Source: Candidatus Altiarchaeota archaeon (GTDB lineage Archaea > Altiarchaeota > Altiarchaeia > IMC4 > QMZM01). From it: 34,343 nucleotides of DNA. The position numbers and the translations under genes are program-made. The DNA lies in NCBI GenBank assembly GCA_016931955.1, contig JAFGDV010000040.1, positions 1 to 34,343 on the forward strand. Direction: 5' to 3'. Of this stretch, positions 6,195 through 25,256 are shown piece by piece. A model generated the notes under the pieces. It did not search any database, was not told where the DNA came from, and worked only from the letters and a program-made list of their open reading frames with translations. The first letter of the stretch is position 1, and the number at the start of each line of letters is the position of its first letter.

Positions 6195-7289
6195 ATGAAT
6201 GAAACAATAACATTATTCGACACCATCCTAAACCAGGTAGGAATCGAGAAGTCCCAATACAGCGGATACGACTCAATCATAGTCTTCGCAGCCATCGTCG
6301 TCGCCTCACTGATTGCCGCAAAAATAGTATACTGGATCATAGAAAGATACGTGAAAATATTCGCCAAAAAAACAAAATCGGAAATAGACGATCTCATCCT
6401 GAGGATAATACAGAAGCCATTATATTACATAATAATACTCCTCGGCTTCGAGTTTGCAGTTAGGACAATAGAGCTCTCTGCAATCATCCAAGAAACCATC
6501 GCAACCCTCGTCTCAGCAGGTATAATAGCAATAGGTGCTTGGTTCATCGCAGACATAGTTGACGTGATCCTTGTTGGGGTAGTAGGGAAAAAGATTGCGG
6601 CAAAAACGCAGACCACTGCGGACGATGAAGCAATCCCATTCCTCTCAAAGGTTCTACGATTCACAATATACCTGCTGGCTTTCATAATCATCCTGGACCA
6701 GTTCAACATAGAGATAACCCCATTAGTTGCCAGTTTAGGCATAGCAGGATTCGCCATAGGCTTCGCAGCCAAAGACACCATAGGCAATCTACTGGCTGGA
6801 TTCTTCATACTCATGGACCGACCATTCGCCAAAGGGGATAGAATAGAGATCAAAGGCCACGTAGGGGAAGTAGTCGACATAGGGCTTAGAACGACCAGGA
6901 TAGAAACCCTAGACCACACATACGTGATAATCCCAAACGCAGACATCGTCTCCAACGAACTCATAAACTACGCACTACCCGACGTGCAGTTGAAGGTGAA
7001 GATCAACATAGGCGTAGCCTATGGAACAGACACCAAGAAGGTGAAGGAGATCCTACTCAAGATAGCCAAAAACGTAGATGACGTGATGAAAGAACCTACG
7101 CCAGCAGTATTTTTCACTGAATTCGGCGACTCCGCCCTCAACTTCCTGCTGATATTCTGGGTATCAGATTTCAGGAAAAAAATCTTTGCAATAGACGAAA
7201 TAAACACAAAAATGGACGAAGAATTCAAAAAACATGGGATAGAGATACCATACCCATGCAGAAACGTTTACATCCAGAAGGAATCTTAA
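6195..7289 (+). CDS. mscS: Small-conductance mechanosensitive channel (MscS family)
   Basis: Several TM helices; LGIAGFAIGFAAKDTIGNLLAG, PFAKGDRI, GEVVDIGLRTT, FGDSAL, IEIPYP. Confidence 0.95.
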   Translation: MNETITLFDTILNQVGIEKSQYSGYDSIIVFAAIVVASLIAAKIVYWIIERYVKIFAKKTKSEIDDLILRIIQKPLYYIIILLGFEFAVRTIELSAIIQETIATLVSAGIIAIGAWFIADIVDVILVGVVGKKIAAKTQTTADDEAIPFLSKVLRFTIYLLAFIIILDQFNIEITPLVASLGIAGFAIGFAAKDTIGNLLAGFFILMDRPFAKGDRIEIKGHVGEVVDIGLRTTRIETLDHTYVIIPNADIVSNELINYALPDVQLKVKINIGVAYGTDTKKVKEILLKIAKNVDDVMKEPTPAVFFTEFGDSALNFLLIFWVSDFRKKIFAIDEINTKMDEEFKKHGIEIPYPCRNVYIQKES

Positions 7290-7297
7290 GCAACCTA

Positions 7298-7527
7298 TGC
7301 TCTTCTTTTTTCTAAAAAGAAAGGCCGCATCACAGCCTTTTAGGAAAAGGCTGCCAGCAAGACCTATGGTCTTGTCTGAGTCGAAACCCGAAGGTCTCAC
7401 TCATTAGCAGGACGCAGCAGCATCCTGTCTGAGTCGATGCCGAAACCTCGCTCATCAAAGAGAATTTGCCGAAGGCAAATTCCTTTTCTTTTGGTGCAGC
7501 TTTTCTTTTAGAAAAAGAAAAGATGCA
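7298..7527. repeat. Array of palindromic (REP/BIME-like) elements between convergent genes
   Basis: Terminal T/A-tract hairpins 7298-7329 and 7495-7527 (roughly inverted copies); CAGCCTTTT-AGG-AAAAGGCTG 7333-7353; two ~50-bp double-hairpin units 7356-7404 and 7406-7455; GAATTTGCC-GAA-GGCAAATTC 7462-7482. Confidence 0.8.
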
Positions 7528-7536
7528 AAGAAAGGG

Positions 7537-7971
7537 CTATTCGTAGATTCCAGCATATCTTTCTTTTTCTTTTAGGAAGATATTCTTGAAGTATTCTGCC
7601 GCAGACTTCACATCCATGAGATTATCTCTGCTGTCTTCAAGGATACTCGCTTCAAGAATCCATCCTTCGCCGTAGGGATCCTTGTTTATCAGTGAGGGAT
7701 CGTCCAGCAGTGTTTCGTTCACTTGGGAGACCATGCACTTGAATGGGGCGGATACCTCCGTCACAGATTTTATGGTCTCGAATGAAGCCATAGGCTCCAT
7801 GGCATTGAATTCTTCGCCGTTGTCTGGCAGATCCACGTGCACTATTTCTTTGGTGAGGGAGCTTCCTAATGAGGTTAAACCAATCCTGGCAGTCTTATCC
7901 TTTAACCCCACCCACACATGCCCTCTCATATATAAAAGATCATCCGGAAAATCAAAGCCCTCTACTCTCAT
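7537..7971 (-). CDS. gcvH: Glycine cleavage H-protein-like lipoyl carrier
   Basis: FPDDLLY..GHVWV, ARIGLT, lipoyl-Lys motif ETIKSV, INKDPYGEGWI. Confidence 0.92.
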   Translation of the reverse strand: MRVEGFDFPDDLLYMRGHVWVGLKDKTARIGLTSLGSSLTKEIVHVDLPDNGEEFNAMEPMASFETIKSVTEVSAPFKCMVSQVNETLLDDPSLINKDPYGEGWILEASILEDSRDNLMDVKSAAEYFKNIFLKEKERYAGIYE

Positions 7972-18140: not shown

Positions 18141-19562
18141 TCAACCCTTAGCGACTCCCAAAGGAACAACCCTGGCAACAGGCTCCGATATCCCGCTCAA
18201 AGAGACGCTCCTTACCACCTCGTCTATGTCTTTATATGCCTCTGAGGCCTCCTCCGCTAGAACCTTGGGATCTGTTGCGCGCACAACCTGCCCCCTCTCC
18301 TCCATCCTCCTCTGTATTTCAGCCCCCCTGAATTTTCTGATTGCACCATGGCGGGACATCAATCTGCCTGCGCCATGACAGGTGCTGCCCCAGGTCTCCT
18401 CAAGTGCCTTCTCCGTTCCAATCAACACATAGCTAGCAGTCCCCATGTCCCCTGGGATAATCACTGGCTGGCCGACTTCCCTGTAGGTCTCAGGTATCTC
18501 CTCCCTGCCTGCAGGGAACGCCCTAGTAGCACCCTTACGGTGGACGCACAACTCCTTTCTTTCCCCATCAACCCTATGTTGCTCGAACTTTGCGATGTTG
18601 TGGCAGACATCATAGACCAATCGGATGTCTAAATCATCACTAAACACCTCCCTAAAAGACTCCCTCACCCAGTAGGTTATTGTCTCACGATTACAGAATG
18701 CATAGTTCACCGCACAATACATCGCAGAAAGGTACCTTTCAGCTTCAGTAGACCTTATTGGAGCACAGGCCAGTTCTTTATCAGGCAGCCTTATCCCATA
18801 CTTCTGGGCTGCCGAAAGCATGACGTTAATGTATTCATCCGCTATCTGATGCCCGAAGCCTCTGCTGCCGGTGTGCACCATCACAGTCACCTGGTCTTCT
18901 GATGTGATCCCGAATCTTTCAGCAATCTTCTTATCATAGATCTTATCGACCTTCTGCACCTCCAAGAAGTGGTTACCAGCTCCGAGGGTTCCGAGCTGTG
19001 GCCTCCCCCTCGCCTTCGCCTTCTTACTCACATTGCTGGGATCAGCACCCTTTATGCAGCCGTTTTCTTCCATGTGCTTCAGATCCTCCTTATAGCCTAG
19101 ATCGTGTTCCACAGCCCATCTCGCGCCATTCAACGCTACTTCATCCAATTCTGATTCAGTGACCCTCAACCTGCTCTTGCTGCCAACACCCGAGGGGATG
19201 TTGGTGAACAGTTTATCGACCAATTGCTTTAATCCAGGCCTTAGATCCTTCTCCATCAGATTGGTCGCCAGAAGCCTGACTCCGCAGTTGATGTCATAGC
19301 CCACACCACCAGGACTGACAACCCCCCGCTCAAGGTCAAAGGCTGCTACCCCGCCGATGGGGAAACCATAGCCATAGTGGCCGTCCGGCATCACCAAGCT
19401 GGCCTTCTGTATTCCTGGAAGCTGGGCGACGTTCGCCGCCTGCTTGAAGACGCCCTCTTCAATCGCCTTAAACAGCCTCTCTGTGGCGTAAATCCTGGCA
19501 GGTACGTTCATTCCAGGATCCTTGAACTCCCAGACTCCCGCCCTGATCTGTTTGGCTTCCAT
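18141..19562 (-). CDS. rtcB: tRNA-splicing ligase RtcB
   Basis: MPDGHYGYGFPIGG, GYDINCG, GNHFLE, HTGSRG, HRKGAT, HGAGR; no intein. Confidence 0.98.
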   Translation of the reverse strand: MEAKQIRAGVWEFKDPGMNVPARIYATERLFKAIEEGVFKQAANVAQLPGIQKASLVMPDGHYGYGFPIGGVAAFDLERGVVSPGGVGYDINCGVRLLATNLMEKDLRPGLKQLVDKLFTNIPSGVGSKSRLRVTESELDEVALNGARWAVEHDLGYKEDLKHMEENGCIKGADPSNVSKKAKARGRPQLGTLGAGNHFLEVQKVDKIYDKKIAERFGITSEDQVTVMVHTGSRGFGHQIADEYINVMLSAAQKYGIRLPDKELACAPIRSTEAERYLSAMYCAVNYAFCNRETITYWVRESFREVFSDDLDIRLVYDVCHNIAKFEQHRVDGERKELCVHRKGATRAFPAGREEIPETYREVGQPVIIPGDMGTASYVLIGTEKALEETWGSTCHGAGRLMSRHGAIRKFRGAEIQRRMEERGQVVRATDPKVLAEEASEAYKDIDEVVRSVSLSGISEPVARVVPLGVAKG

Positions 19563-22387: not shown

Positions 22388-22698
22388 TTAAGAATCAAAA
22401 AACGCTGTGCAAATTTTTTTGGCTTTTTTCAGGTTTTCTGTTATTTCTTTTTCTGTTAGCCAGGGTTTCATTTCCCCTAGTCTGCTGATTAATTGGCGGT
22501 CGTCTTGGTATGTGTTTTCTTTTTTCAGGAAGGTTAGGGATGCAATGATCTCAATCTTTTTCGTGTCTTTTATGTCATCTACCAACTGGTCTCTGACTTC
22601 TTTTATGGTGGCTGCTTCTTTGGGGGTTGGTTCTGTTCCCTTTTGTTGTTTTTCACTTAGTGCGTAGCCATCTACTGCCAAGGCGCTTGATTAGGGCC
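22388..22698 (-). pseudogene. C-terminal remnant of a GPYS-motif (Panacea/YwgA-like) protein
   Basis: Frame reads GP*SSALAVDGYAL...KKIEIIASLTFL...KPWLTEKEI; TAA where GPYS would have Tyr; no N-terminal half. Confidence 0.45.
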
Positions 22699-23015
22699 CA
22701 TACCATCTCTTTTAGGTCGTCTTCTCTGATGATTTGGAATCCGTTGAATTCGGATATCTTGTTTGTTGGTGGTGTGCATTCTTCTCTTTTTATTTTTATT
22801 CGTTCTTTGTCGGCTTTGTTTTTTATTTTTTCGTAGAATTCGTCTGCTGTCTTTTTGTCTGTGTCGCATATGACTTCGACTTTGCCGTCTCTGCGGTTTT
22901 TTACTTGCCCGATGATGTTTGTTTTGTCGGCTATTTCTTTTATCATCTGCCTTAGGTAGACGCCTTGGACATCCATGTCCGTATTTCCTGCGAAAGTCAT
23001 CCTCCAAACACCCAT
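22653..23015 (-). CDS. Acylphosphatase-like domain protein, probably 3'-truncated
   Basis: VQGVYLRQMIKEIA, IIGQVKNRRDGKVEVIC; ends shortly after REDDLKEMVWAL in sequence overlapping another gene remnant. Confidence 0.65.
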   Translation of the reverse strand: MGVWRMTFAGNTDMDVQGVYLRQMIKEIADKTNIIGQVKNRRDGKVEVICDTDKKTADEFYEKIKNKADKERIKIKREECTPPTNKISEFNGFQIIREDDLKEMVWALIKRLGSRWLRTK

Positions 23016-23138
23016 CTTGTCTCCGCAAACCTGCTTTATAGTTCTTATAAGTATATAGACACAAGCATTAAATAACCGCCCACACCCCCCACAACAAAGA
23101 CAATAATAAACCCTCACACGTAAATATAATATCCAAAG

Positions 23139-23192
23139 ATGACTGAACTGGATTATCAAAAACTGGGCTTCAAGTGTGGTATAGGAATCCAT
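23139..23192 (+). pseudogene. Displaced 5' stub of gatE (MTELDYQKLGFKCGIGIH)
   Basis: 40/54 nt identical to 23257-23310 (MTDINYKTLGFKCGIEIH); frame runs into the palindromes and stops at 23237. Confidence 0.85.
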
Positions 23193-23193
23193 G

Positions 23194-23252
23194 CACAGCC
23201 TTTTAAGAAAAGGCTGGCGAAAAAGGATGCTGTCTGACGACAGCATCAGACA
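23194..23252. repeat. Palindromic element pair upstream of gatE
   Basis: CACAGCCTTTTAAGAAAAGGCTG (23194-23216; 22/23 identical to 7331-7353) and GATGCTGTC-TGAC-GACAGCATC (23226-23247). Confidence 0.85.
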
Positions 23253-23256
23253 AAAG

Positions 23257-25119
23257 ATGACAGACATCAACTATAAAACATTGGGTTTCAAGTGCGGTAT
23301 CGAGATCCATCAGCAGTTGGAGACGCATAAGTTGTTCTGCGAGTGCCCTTCCATCATAAGAGAGGACGAACCCGACATCGTCGTCAGGAGAAAGATGAGG
23401 GCTGTCGCCGGAGAGATCGGAAACGTTGATCCTGCGGCGTTGTATGAATACCTCAGAGACAAGGAGATGATCTATCAAGCATACAGGGATACGACCTGTC
23501 TCGTGGAATTAGACGAAGAACCACCTCATCCGCTGAACGAGGAAGCCTTAGACACGGTCCTAGAGGCCTCGCTGCTCTTGAACGCGAAACCAGTGGATGA
23601 ACTGCAGGTCATGAGGAAGACAGTAATAGACGGCTCAAACACCTCAGGCTTCCAGAGGACCATTCTCGTGGCAATGGACGGCCACCTAGAAACAGAAGAA
23701 GGCAGAGTGAGAATACCGACCATCTGCCTCGAAGAAGACGCCGCAAGAAAAATAGGCGAAGAAAAGGATACGACAGTGTATAGGCTGGACAGACTCAGCA
23801 TACCTTTGATAGAGATAGCCACGACGCCAGACATAAAAAATCCAGGACATGCGAGAGAGGTTGCGGAAAAACTGGGGATGATACTGAGGGCGACAGGTAA
23901 GGTGAGAAGGGGATTAGGGACGATAAGGCAGGACCTGAACGTCTCCATAAGAGAGGGGGAGAGAGTAGAGATCAAAGGCGTACAGGATCTGCGTTTAATA
24001 GAAGACGTCCTCAGAAAAGAAGTGGAGAGACAGCTTATGCTGGTCGAGGTCAAGAAGGAACTGAAAAAAAGAGGGGCTAAAGCAGAAGACTTAGACTATG
24101 GGTTCGTTGACGTGACCCCTCTGTTCAAGAACACGAAGTCGACGATTGTCGCGAAAATGCTGGAGAAAGGCGCCAAGGTTATGGCTGTGAGACTGACGGG
24201 CTTCAAGGGATTGCTTAAGGGCAGGCTTGGACCTGAGCTGGCGCAGTACGCTAAAGCAGGTTCAGGTGTTAAGGGTATATTCCACTCAGACGAGCTCCCA
24301 GACTACGGCATAACTGAGGAGGAGGTTAAGGCCGTCGAGGATCGGCTGAAGATTAAAGATTATAAAGCGTTCGCTTTAGTAGTCGAAGAAAAGGAAACAG
24401 CAGAGAAGGCATTAGCTGAAGTGGTCAACAGATGCAAGACGGCGATAGATGGTGTCCCAGAGGAGACCCGGAAGGCTAAACCGGATGCGACAACAGAGTT
24501 CATGCGCCCACTTCCAGGATCGGCGAGGATGTATCCGGAGACAGACGAAGCACTTCTGGTTATCACCGAGGGGAGAATTGAGAGGATAAAGAGGGATATC
24601 CCTGAACTGCCAGAGGAACGGCTTGAGAGATACTTGAAGAAGGGCCTCAACCAAGAATTAGCTAATCAACTAATCAAGAGTCGTTCATCTGAGACCTTCG
24701 ACGAATTATCAGAGAAGTTCCCAGAGATTAAGGCCTCTACAATAGCGAATACCATACTTTCAATGCCGAAGGAGGTCAGGAAGAGATACAACGTGGACAC
24801 CAGTTCCCTGAGGAAAGAACACTATGAAGGGATCTTCAAGGAGATCATGGGAGGACGAACTACTAAGGAGTTCATACCTGACATTATGGCAGCCCTAGCA
24901 GCTGATCCGGAGAAATCTGTGGAAAAGGTCATCGAAGAAAAAGGCCTGCAGTCTATGACGGAGGAAGGAGTAGAGGAACTAGTAGGTAGGCTGATTTCGG
25001 AGAACAAGGGCATGACCTTCGGCGCCTTGATGGGTAAGACTATGGCAGAACTGAAAGGAAGGGCTGACGCAGAAGCCGTGAAAGAAATCATACACAGAAA
25101 ACTGCAAGCTAAAGGATAA
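23257..25119 (+). CDS. gatE: Glutamyl-tRNA(Gln) amidotransferase subunit E
   Basis: GFKCGIEIHQQL, MRKTVIDGSNTSGFQRT, RGLGTIRQDLNVSI, RPLPGSARMYPETD; ATG at 23257. Confidence 0.98.
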   Translation: MTDINYKTLGFKCGIEIHQQLETHKLFCECPSIIREDEPDIVVRRKMRAVAGEIGNVDPAALYEYLRDKEMIYQAYRDTTCLVELDEEPPHPLNEEALDTVLEASLLLNAKPVDELQVMRKTVIDGSNTSGFQRTILVAMDGHLETEEGRVRIPTICLEEDAARKIGEEKDTTVYRLDRLSIPLIEIATTPDIKNPGHAREVAEKLGMILRATGKVRRGLGTIRQDLNVSIREGERVEIKGVQDLRLIEDVLRKEVERQLMLVEVKKELKKRGAKAEDLDYGFVDVTPLFKNTKSTIVAKMLEKGAKVMAVRLTGFKGLLKGRLGPELAQYAKAGSGVKGIFHSDELPDYGITEEEVKAVEDRLKIKDYKAFALVVEEKETAEKALAEVVNRCKTAIDGVPEETRKAKPDATTEFMRPLPGSARMYPETDEALLVITEGRIERIKRDIPELPEERLERYLKKGLNQELANQLIKSRSSETFDELSEKFPEIKASTIANTILSMPKEVRKRYNVDTSSLRKEHYEGIFKEIMGGRTTKEFIPDIMAALAADPEKSVEKVIEEKGLQSMTEEGVEELVGRLISENKGMTFGALMGKTMAELKGRADAEAVKEIIHRKLQAKG

Positions 25120-25121
25120 CG

Positions 25122-25188
25122 TCAAACAGAAAACCCAAAGGTTTCCTTTCTTTTGATCAACCTTTTCTTTAAGAAAGAAAAGGCTGGA
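25122..25188. repeat. Palindromic element downstream of gatE
   Basis: TCAAACAGAA-hairpin-TTCCTTTCTTTTG-CAACCTTTTCTTT-AAG-AAAGAAAAGGCTG; same architecture as 7455-7527. Confidence 0.8.
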
Positions 25189-25190
25189 CG

Positions 25191-25256
25191 GAACTGAAAG
25201 GAAGGGCTGACGCAGAAGCCGTGAAAGAAATCATACAACAGAAGCTGGGAAAGTGA
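25191..25256 (+). pseudogene. Duplicated 3' stub of gatE (ELKGRADAEAVKEIIQQKLGK*)
   Basis: 47-bp perfect direct repeat of 25048-25094 at 25191-25237, followed by an alternative C-terminus and TGA. Confidence 0.9.

Follow-up and report, generated by a model that had tools for sequence, protein, structure and literature searches.

The stretch of DNA analysed here (the window) is a 34,343 nt contig from a Candidatus Altiarchaeota archaeon, whose genome (G000) is a 46-contig bin of 92% completeness. It carries a complete gatE gene on the forward strand (23257-25119), encoding a 620 amino acid protein that translates without an internal stop. The protein contains the Pfam domains GatB_N (1.9e-57), GAD and GatB_Yqey, and shares 69% identity across residues 1-616 with its homologue in G001, a genome of the same genus. 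Neighbouring genes are priS, two small unknown ORFs, S6e, aIF2-gamma and a gene for a PIN protein. No transposase or integrase is annotated among these neighbours, as an earlier note on this DNA had stated, and neither an Rfam nor a tRNA scan of the window gave a match.

At the 5′ end of gatE, a 58 nt forward-strand sequence occurs twice with 76% identity (direct repeat D1). The inner copy (23253-23310) is the working start of the gene, while the outer copy (23135-23192), the 5′ stub, comprises 4 nt upstream of an ATG plus 18 codons and is joined to the native upstream region. The copies differ at 14 positions, eight of them third codon positions, and five codons are synonymous changes. Between them lies a 60 nt insert (23193-23252, forward strand) made up of a family hairpin on the stub side (23196-23216), an A-run and a unique hairpin on the gene side (23226-23247). 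Positions 2-31 of this insert match six other loci at 90-97%, and the remainder is unique in the genome. The stub ends at a Gln codon immediately ahead of the hairpin. Its open frame of 32 codons (23139-23237, forward strand) reads across the first hairpin and stops 20 nt ahead of the gatE ATG, out of frame with gatE; it may be translated, and the predicted protein matches no Pfam family. A role for the stub as a leader peptide or attenuator was set aside as speculation: 5 of 30 genomes carry the stub, and the one in G007 lacks an ATG.

At the 3′ end, the repeat is exact (D2, 47 nt, 100% identity), with an inner copy inside gatE (25048-25094) and an outer copy (25191-25237) that opens the 3′ stub (25191-25256, forward strand). 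The stub continues from the repeat into an old six-codon tail with its own stop at 25256, and then without a break into the spacer ahead of S6e. The 96 nt insert between the copies (25095-25190, forward strand) supplies the new last eight codons of gatE plus the stop (25095-25119), followed by a unique spacer, a small hairpin (25131-25144), a T-run and, beside the stub, a family hairpin (25158-25186); positions 49-89 alone match other loci. Homology between the new and old tails was considered and dropped, since 3499 of 5000 shuffles matched or beat their similarity score. In G001, the spacer and S6e are syntenic, the gatE tail resembles that of the 3′ stub and there is no insert, while the 5′ stub lies behind a conserved priS-gatE arrangement. 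Both fit the proposal in the earlier note that the stubs are former, displaced gene ends.

Each outer joint lies at the foot of a hairpin of the same family. The 5′ stub remains homologous up to 23192, 3 nt short of the 23196-23216 stem, and the 3′ stub begins at 25191, 4 nt past the 25158-25186 stem. The outer hairpin modules at the two ends form an inverted pair (repeat I1, 22 nt, 77%). With up to three mismatches allowed, 0.01 matches to the hairpin pattern are expected in the window, against the two sites found. Local alignment of gene ends with their flanks scored 46 and 98 for gatE and 14-20 for eight control ends. The observation made in the earlier note, of an intact gatE between hairpins that are themselves enclosed by stubs, with outer breaks 3-4 nt from related hairpin feet, is thus confirmed. 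A hairpin scan found a second array of the same modules between two convergent genes (7289-7537), with no flanking duplication detected.

The layout might be an assembly artefact, with two strains or repeats misjoined in the metagenome bin, but we regard this as extremely unlikely. Two points speak for it: the genome is a bin in 46 contigs, and the 5′ insert junctions come from the assembly, with no cover for them, or for most of gatE, among the Logan pieces listed. At the 3′ end, an independent Logan unitig from run X1 covers 25065-25220 with no differences at a depth of 41.4, equal to that of the adjoining contig (42.1). It contains both 3′-insert junctions at the k-mer level, though with flanks of 30 nt on each side, short of the bridging criterion of 31; the earlier note had called for reads across the junctions. 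Run X1, probably the source sample, is the sole run that holds the region; run X2 contains next to none of its words. Furthermore, the joints at the hairpin feet share no k-mer, and the same layout appears in seven independently assembled genomes.

The hairpin family has 20 copies in G000, none in the same-genus G001 and 12 each in G010 and G024, which is the patchy distribution that a spreading element would show. G010 and G024 also have the same layout of inserts and duplications. A gatE 5′ stub with a family hairpin was found in 5 of 30 evaluable genomes, spanning three families, with stub alignment scores of 19.5-49 in the carriers and at most 11 in the other evaluable genomes. The joint falls at the same codon of a conserved gatE motif in G000, G007, G033 and G028, which could reflect common descent or ordinary homologous transfer as opposed to repeated formation. 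At the gatE joints of G033 and G028, 2-4 nt are common to the hairpin stem and the gene sequence that follows the joint, which may be microhomology. The 3′ stub was seen in G000 only, among the same 30 genomes. Metagenome contigs, scanned both with a protein guide and for exact patterns, held no donor or empty-site allele; the sole return from the genome-contig scan for a donor was a DPANN locus, 43% identical, and the closest relative is just 69% identical in GatE. In a protein atlas, the nearest GatE cluster is tentatively placed in Thermoproteota.

Within G000, at least 25 duplications flank hairpin inserts. tRNAs are the commonest site, with such duplications at 10 of the 14 detected; tRNA 5′ ends are affected as well, tRNA-Phe on C30 has stubs at both ends, and one tRNA on C9 has several stubs stacked. 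Events also occur at the starts (C2, C18) and ends (C4, C17, C37) of protein genes. Insert sizes range from 39 to 200 nt and flanking duplications from 13 to 58 nt, with exact repeats of 47, 55 and 58 nt at gatE 3′, C26 and C37, and at 5′ events the repeats begin 0-7 nt from the start codon. The inserts have no second copy elsewhere in the genome; the repeated portion is the 30-45 nt hairpin part alone, and conservation of the inserts is restricted to one end. Of 132 short-range repeat pairs that stand isolated, 21 enclose a strong hairpin, compared with 107 of 2640 random segments. For 38 of 282 strong hairpins, the flanking repeats exceed the 99th percentile of a mismatched-pair null. The later null for this genome was inflated by modules common to hairpin flanks (99th percentile 29), and an adjacency criterion was therefore used instead. 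By this criterion, a repeat copy no more than 7 nt from a conserved-hairpin stem, G000 scores 9 of 25 cases (control 49 of 588), and G010 and G024 together score 10 of 21 (control 3 of 414). Duplicated gene termini thus adjoin hairpin feet across this genome and its relatives, the association for which the earlier note had suggested a genome scan. A fold-back (snap-back) origin of the inserts was rejected as a general rule, with complementarity between insert and duplication reaching p < 0.05 in just 4 of 15 events.

The earlier note explained the locus as a single swap of a hairpin-bounded gatE cassette, with an HUH enzyme of the IS200/IS605 or RAYT-like kind cutting at both hairpins. The inverted, related hairpins 3-4 nt from both outer joints are what such a swap would leave; no other protein gene in G000 is flanked by the core hairpin at both ends, and the doubly stubbed tRNA-Phe offers a parallel. 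Nevertheless, we consider a one-step swap unlikely. A whole foreign gene should differ from both stubs, whereas identity is 76% for the 5′ repeat and 100% for its 3′ counterpart; the duplication is one-ended in all eight other protein-gene events of the genome; and the 5′ stub is present in five genomes, the 3′ stub in G000 only. Enzyme searches point the same way. The Y1 profile (PF01797) has no match in G000, within its 92% completeness, while the control matched in six genomes. G002 and G022 also lack a match, though both carry the hairpin family. Y1 transposases are present in G004, G010 and G024, yet the hairpins adjoining those of G024 and G010 are G+C-rich and outside the T/A-tract family, and the hairpins nearest the G004 gene are about 1.3 kb away. 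The Y2_Tnp profile gave no matches, but its control likewise matched nowhere, which makes that negative uninformative, and a TnpB-like match on C7 was weak (18 bits) and below the cut-off. HUH insertion is not known to leave a duplication, which counts further against the swap.

The preference for tRNA ends (10 of 14), the stacked stubs at one tRNA and the pattern of an exact core with a replaced tail, which resembles an attachment-site duplication, suggest another origin: the inserts could be scars of site-specific integrative elements, which used a tyrosine integrase and an att site in a tRNA or gene end and have since lost their interior. There is indeed one Phage_integrase (PF00589) match in G000 (C38:51698-52180), but it lies far from any event, and a single integrase gene sits poorly with so many different targets, tRNA 5′ ends among them. 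All inserts are small (39-200 nt), and no kilobase-sized, repeat-flanked element stood out in an overall view of same-contig repeats more than 500 nt apart, most of which looked like paralogue repeats. This origin therefore seems improbable to us.

The differences between stubs and genes are informative about what the stubs once were. In six G000 events, picked after the pattern was seen, 34 of 50 differences fall in the third position of a codon; for a neutrally decaying stub we would expect 43.5%, by a rough estimate of our own (p = 4e-4). Codon differences comprise 25 synonymous and 15 non-synonymous changes, and the stubs retain stop codons. Because of the third-position bias, the stubs resemble displaced functional alleles, not decayed copies. 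The G029 gatE stub, by comparison, has changes at conserved residues, as expected from decay. Several duplications are mosaic (gatE 3′, L034, G033 and G028), with an exact core at the joint and a diverged part towards the gene boundary. In G033 and G028, each gatE copy has its own ATG, and the copies differ by an in-frame length change.

These allele-like differences could also postdate a plain insertion, through homologous exchange with other lineages that overwrote the stub or the gene end. On that account, the inserts would be non-autonomous, MITE- or REP-like double-hairpin elements with long, variable target-site duplications; the stubs would be these duplications, later altered by exchange in tracts that end at the insert. 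We see this as a possible explanation, to be held tentatively. The earlier note had recorded no short target-site duplication, which holds, but stubs of 13-58 nt can be read as long ones. For the exact repeats of 47-58 nt at gatE 3′, C26 and C37, a long target-site duplication with nothing more is just as good a fit. The patchy distribution among relatives is in keeping with it too, and in G010 a repeat unit of about 65 nt has a sharp hairpin end (alignment A1), and the gatE insert of G033 is a member. Precedent exists in IS1549 and IS1634, whose direct repeats span 8-514 bp, without an accepted mechanism (PMC2266710). On the other side, G000 has no match to PF01797, PF01867 (Cas1) or PF00078 (RVT_1). 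RVT_1 is also unmatched in G010, G002 and G024, its only matches being in G022. DDE_Tnp_1 (PF01609) has no match in G000 or G024, despite many events in both, compared with 11 matches in G010 and 4 in G004; this negative is weak because bins often lose IS copies. The greater part of every insert is unique in the genome, those at exact-repeat events included. Repeats that start 0-7 nt from the start codon at 5′ events are unlike the product of random staggered cuts, and the working ATG of both G033 and G028 falls beyond the exact repeat, which would require the insert to have supplied a matching gene start by chance.

The explanation we favour is that gatE was struck twice, independently, by hairpin-ended patches carrying foreign gene ends, a conclusion for which we see about equal grounds for belief and doubt. 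The process behind both would be a common one in this archaeal order. In each event, a short DNA patch would have been joined into a gene end. Its outer side would be a T/A-tract hairpin of the conserved family, its middle a second, more variable hairpin with a spacer, and its inner side another lineage's version of the gene terminus. Homology inside the gene end would make the inner joint, while the outer one would be non-homologous, with 0-5 nt between it and the conserved hairpin's foot. Instead of being lost, the end of the resident gene would be displaced outward and persist as the stub; the gene would thus stay whole and the hairpin element would gain a new site. For gatE 5′, the first 18 working codons would be one allele and the stub the other. 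For gatE 3′, the 96 nt patch would have brought eight new final codons with their stop, together with a T-run and a hairpin that resembles a terminator, and the 47 nt exact duplicate at the joint is as expected if the resident template had been newly copied. We infer that the patches are foreign and that the order of events was invasion by strand pairing, followed by ligation of the hairpin end to the resident strand thus displaced; this would be homology-facilitated illegitimate recombination in one of its forms. The interpretation in the earlier note is therefore partly supported: one joint does look homologous and the other non-homologous, a combination that would leave the gene whole, while its single swap and its HUH enzyme find little place.

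A variant of this explanation, which we find rather doubtful, is a transposase-free, homing-like system in which double-hairpin patches move between lineages, bring their own terminus, pair and are ligated to the displaced strand, the shared gatE joint being a case of site-specific homing. Elements that carry their own terminus copy and pair with the target could settle in essential genes, and if this is correct, homing across three families would be guided by homology and hairpin structure, not by an encoded enzyme.

Small palindromic repeats are common in prokaryotes, their movement is mostly unexplained and they are scarcely described in archaea. The footprint described here, an allele-like duplicated gene end at a hairpin foot, narrows down the mechanism and offers a signature to look for in whatever genome is at issue. 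The recurring pattern at gene and tRNA ends points to an undescribed way to patch DNA without breaking a gene. If patching of this kind occurs, a gene end is replaced by a foreign allele and the old end left as a stub; if the patches are foreign, the ends of essential genes and tRNAs are exchanged among distant relatives via a few dozen bases of homology. For annotation, such stub frames and partial tRNAs should not be taken for pseudogenes of lost paralogues. A literature search of limited range found no paper on archaeal hairpin inserts with duplicated gene ends.

Among known processes, homology-facilitated illegitimate recombination, familiar from bacterial natural transformation, likewise produces one homologous and one non-homologous joint with foreign DNA beside the anchor. 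The incoming sequence there differs from the resident allele, as appears to be so here (34 of 50 differences at third positions, with mosaic copies). The present events differ in their anchors of just 13-58 nt, in a resident segment that is duplicated instead of deleted, in a non-homologous joint that is always at a hairpin foot and in an archaeal host without a known uptake system. IS200/IS605 and REP-RAYT elements insert without target duplication beside a fixed target of 4-5 nt, whereas we see duplications of 13-58 nt and, judging the insert flanks by eye, no common short target. Classical MITEs end in inverted repeats and duplicate a short target stretch whose length is fixed, in contrast to repeats of 13-58 nt and inserts conserved at one end. 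Integrative elements come to be flanked by exact copies of the end of a tRNA or gene, with the incoming copy keeping the gene whole; here no integrase and no element body lie between the repeats, and tiny inserts occupy many targets.

Reportedly close in form are the Allomyces gene hybrids, where the working end of the gene is foreign and the native one persists. Mitochondrial short inverted repeats and double-hairpin elements are small, mobile and built of one or two hairpins, and mobile endonuclease genes make gene hybrids by horizontal transfer (PMC3787672). These belong to another type of genome and the hybrids are endonuclease-driven, while no such gene is present here. REP/BIME and REPIN-RAYT systems are short extragenic palindromes forming mosaic arrays at gene ends in bacterial genomes, with compensatory stem variation and non-autonomous elements, as in our case (PMC3116915, PMC3337134). 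Long gene-end duplications go unmentioned in the abstracts of both papers, and G000 has no RAYT that we found. The IS1634/IS1549 elements, a family found preferentially among Euryarchaeota according to PMC2266710, share with our events long direct repeats of variable length (13-58 nt here), but they are 1.5-2 kb in size and carry a DDE transposase, compared with inserts of 39-200 nt in this archaeon.

The window lies on contig C13 of the archaeal bin G000 (46 contigs, 1.55 Mb, 92% complete). Its gatE gene (23257-25119, plus strand) is complete and encodes 620 residues with GatB_N, GAD and GatB_Yqey domains, 69% identical to the homologue in the same-genus genome G001; the gene order priS-gatE-S6e is common to relatives. 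A repeat finder confirmed the layout claimed in the earlier note, in which gatE is bounded on each side by hairpins and then by a stub, an outer leftover copy of the gene end. The plus-strand 5′ pair (23135-23192 outside, 23253-23310 at the gene start) spans 58 nt at 76% identity; the 3′ pair (25048-25094 in gatE, 25191-25237 outside) is identical over 47 nt, and its outer copy continues to its own stop at 25256. The inserts between stub and working gene end measure 60 nt (5′) and 96 nt (3′). Each carries, on its stub-facing side, a hairpin of a conserved family (23196-23216 and 25158-25186; a stem with a T-run, a 3-nt loop and an A-run), 3 nt from the 5′ stub and 4 nt from the 3′ stub, and on its gene-facing side a second, unique hairpin plus an A or T run. 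The 5′ stub retains its ATG, opening a 32-codon frame that stops 20 nt ahead of the gatE ATG. The 3′ insert supplies a new gatE tail of eight codons and a stop; the old six-codon tail sits inside the 3′ stub and runs on into the spacer and the S6e gene. Alignment with sister genomes showed that this stub tail and spacer resemble those of G001, which is insert-free at both gatE ends. Between priS and gatE lie two small minus-strand ORFs (22388-23064; 97 and 130 aa) without Pfam matches, for which tblastn against the loci of 11 relatives, where the spacer is of similar size, gave no match.

Such inserts recur throughout G000. The hairpin core is present in 26 copies (allowing 0-14 nt between arms), within mosaic arrays of several hairpin modules. 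Strong hairpins separated short-range direct repeats in 21 of 132 isolated pairs, against 107 of 2640 random segments, and 38 of 282 strong hairpins were flanked by repeats scoring beyond the 99th percentile of a null built from mismatched pairs. Read one by one, the events (an insert with its duplicated end) fall into three groups. The first, at protein-gene starts, comprises C2 7370/7497, C2 28880/28966 and C18 8865/8966, two of which separate gene pairs whose stop and start formerly overlapped. The second, at protein-gene ends, comprises C4 8931/9032, C17 30220/30358, C37 25573/25678, C7 31363/31446 and C26 54316/54410; the C26 repeat, just upstream of a start codon, is read as the end of a putative upstream gene. 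The third affects 10 of the 14 tRNAs called by ARAGORN, at both 5′ and 3′ ends, with a stub at each end of tRNA-Phe on C30. Event repeats range from 13 to 58 nt with identities of 76-100%, and inserts measure 39-200 nt. All eight other protein genes with an event at one end show none at the opposite end.

Several further arrangements were observed. On C9 (19128-19600) the 3′ end of tRNA-Pro occurs three times with hairpin modules between the copies, which suggests repeated events at one tRNA. A tRNA-like gene on C31 (~19170-19330), whose anticodon region reads Asn, seems to hold a family hairpin module in an intron-like insert; ARAGORN does not call it, its whole-bin calls numbering 14 only. 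An array of ~250 nt with at least four hairpin modules lies between convergent genes in the window (7289-7537), with no detectable duplication. A 12-nt motif has 21 sites in G000 (≤1 mismatch), often right at gene boundaries, among them C37 22475 and 22581, C23 102080-102462, and C28 26221, 26355, 31529 and 31590. In three of the loci the segment duplicated around a hairpin insert is this motif itself, and in G024, a relative, the motif likewise borders a hairpin (L023); it may serve as a favoured anchor or in regulation. Long internal repeats within large genes (C5 111388-112194; C40 55384-56189 and 61994-62669; C23 8240-8670), some rich in Cys-Gly-Gly-Pro-Cys-like units, probably belong to secreted repeat proteins.

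The inserts follow common rules. One boundary lies at the foot of a hairpin: in the genome scan that the earlier note had proposed, a repeat copy fell within 7 nt of a conserved-family stem for 9 of the 25 G000 cases (control 49/588, inflated by modules shared between hairpins) and for 10 of 21 in the relatives G010 and G024 (control 3/414). Apart from the conserved hairpin portion (30-45 nt), which has further copies in G000, insert sequence is unique in that genome, even in the three exact-repeat events. Repeats of 5′ events start 0-7 nt ahead of the start codon or mature tRNA 5′ end. All four gene-start events with a conserved module (gatE 5′, C18, C2 28880 and gatE of G007) place the conserved hairpin on the stub side and direct the hairpin-plus-T-run unit away from the gene; the C2 7370 insert lacks the module. 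At gene ends, three events out of four have the unit running in the gene's direction, and C7 is the reversed one. This orientation fits selection against a terminator placed ahead of a gene. At C18 (8868-8971) the stub frame reads through the insert to a stop overlapping the working start codon, and at gatE of G033 (L051 316-450) it crosses the insert to a stop directly followed by the working ATG; the reading frames suggest that translational coupling keeps both genes expressed.

We compared gatE ends with their flanks in 32 loci, one of which had too little upstream sequence and two of which were missed by the motif search; one of the latter, G007, was assessed by eye. A 5′ stub with a family hairpin occurs in G000, G007 (same family, other genus), G033 and G029 (another family) and G028 (a third family), with alignment scores of 19.5-49 in the four scored carriers against ≤11 in the other 25. 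In G000, G007, G033 and G028 the stub stops at the same codon of a conserved catalytic motif, right against the hairpin stem. The two copies share an exact stretch of 49 nt in G033 and 33 nt in G028; in both genomes each copy has an ATG and the N-termini differ by an in-frame length change. The G033 insert belongs to a repeat family that is multi-copy in G010. The G029 joint comes 15 nt sooner, its hairpin represents a different subtype, and changes at conserved positions make its stub look like an old copy in decay. No compared locus in the relatives has a 3′ gatE stub. The hairpin family is patchily distributed, with core matches in 18 of 41 genomes: a cross-genome scan gave 20 in G000, none in G001 and 12 each in G010 and G024. 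In G010, locus L040 (C123 1598-2567) is a tandem repeat of a ~155-nt unit with a family hairpin at the end of each. The phenomenon is firm and general across an archaeal order; its mechanism is a proposal.

These comparisons disfavour the earlier view that an HUH enzyme replaced a single hairpin-bounded gatE cassette in one step, at hairpin-adjacent nicks: the two gatE ends differ in identity (76% vs 100%), events elsewhere are one-ended, the 3′ stub is confined to G000 and the enzyme was not found. Searches of G000 (92% complete) for Y1 HUH transposase, Cas1, reverse transcriptase and DDE_Tnp_1 returned none, with one sub-threshold TnpB-like match. Y1 transposases occur in G004, G010 and G024, and none in G002 or G022. 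The IS200-like Y1 genes of G024 (L045, C20 1-2022) and G010 (L046, C40) are flanked by G+C-rich hairpins of a different kind, so the Y1/RAYT gene flanked by family hairpins that had been anticipated was not encountered there or in G000. In G024, ~730 nt from a Y1 gene, a duplicated gene end accompanies a family hairpin. G010 has many DDE transposases and G024 has none. No candidate enzyme tracked the events among the genomes searched, which is weak evidence since bins lose repeats. Scars of integrase-borne elements are less likely still: inserts measure at most 200 nt, targets are many, tRNA 5′ ends are affected too, and the one tyrosine recombinase of G000 is distant from every event.

An assembly artefact is likewise less likely than the cassette swap. 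An independent Logan unitig, from the sole run holding the region (probably the source sample), matches 25065-25220 without difference at a depth of 41.4 (adjoining contig, 42.1). It holds both 3′-insert junctions with 30 nt per side, one short of the tool's bridging rule, and could not reach further because the 47-nt repeat exceeds the k-mer length; the 5′ junctions had no cover among the Logan pieces listed. A systematic artefact is improbable, given that seven genomes, each assembled independently, show this layout.

Stub and gene differ in the manner of two working alleles. Across six G000 events, 24 of 36 differences fall at third codon positions, codon differences are 19 synonymous to 11 non-synonymous, and stop codons are retained in stubs. 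Adding three events from G010 and G024 gives 34 of 50 (p = 6e-7 against one third; p = 4e-4 against 43.5%, our rough estimate for a neutral stub beside a constrained gene), for events picked after the trend was noticed. Some pairs are mosaic, exact by the joint and diverged toward the gene boundary (gatE 3′, locus L034, and gatE 5′ of G033 and G028).

Most likely, each insert is part of a patch made of a hairpin element and, adjacent to it, another lineage's version of that gene's end. Beyond the anatomy, we infer the following steps. A single strand, presumably protected from trimming by the conserved hairpin at its end, would pair with the resident gene end; its inner end would be extended or ligated into the resident strand (the homologous joint), and its hairpin end ligated to the displaced resident strand (the non-homologous joint). 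After replication, one daughter would hold the resident stub, the hairpin patch and the working gene end. Such a patch would account for the boundary at the hairpin foot, for repeats that start at gene boundaries, beyond which lineages cease to be homologous, for the allele-like differences, and for the exact core by the joint, which would have been newly synthesised from the resident template. Diverged DNA would anchor best in highly conserved segments, such as tRNA ends and the catalytic motif at the gatE start, which fits the event hot spots. The process would be a form of homology-facilitated illegitimate recombination, so that the core of the earlier interpretation is kept and its one-step HUH version disfavoured.

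The strongest rival to the patch is plain insertion with long, variable target duplications, in which homologous exchange could later have overwritten the stubs with alleles of other lineages. IS1549 and IS1634 offer a precedent for such duplications (PMC2266710). This rival is countered by the unique inserts, by repeats that begin at gene boundaries and by working ATGs outside the exact repeats.

In the literature searched we came upon no account of archaeal hairpin inserts accompanied by duplicated, allele-like gene ends, and the inserts qualify as members of none of the families compared below. REP/BIME (PMC3116915, PMC3337134) and mitochondrial hairpin elements (PMC3787672) are likewise small, structured, non-autonomous and extragenic. 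In outcome, the inserts resemble attachment-site duplications and the gene hybrids left by mobile endonuclease genes (PMC3787672).
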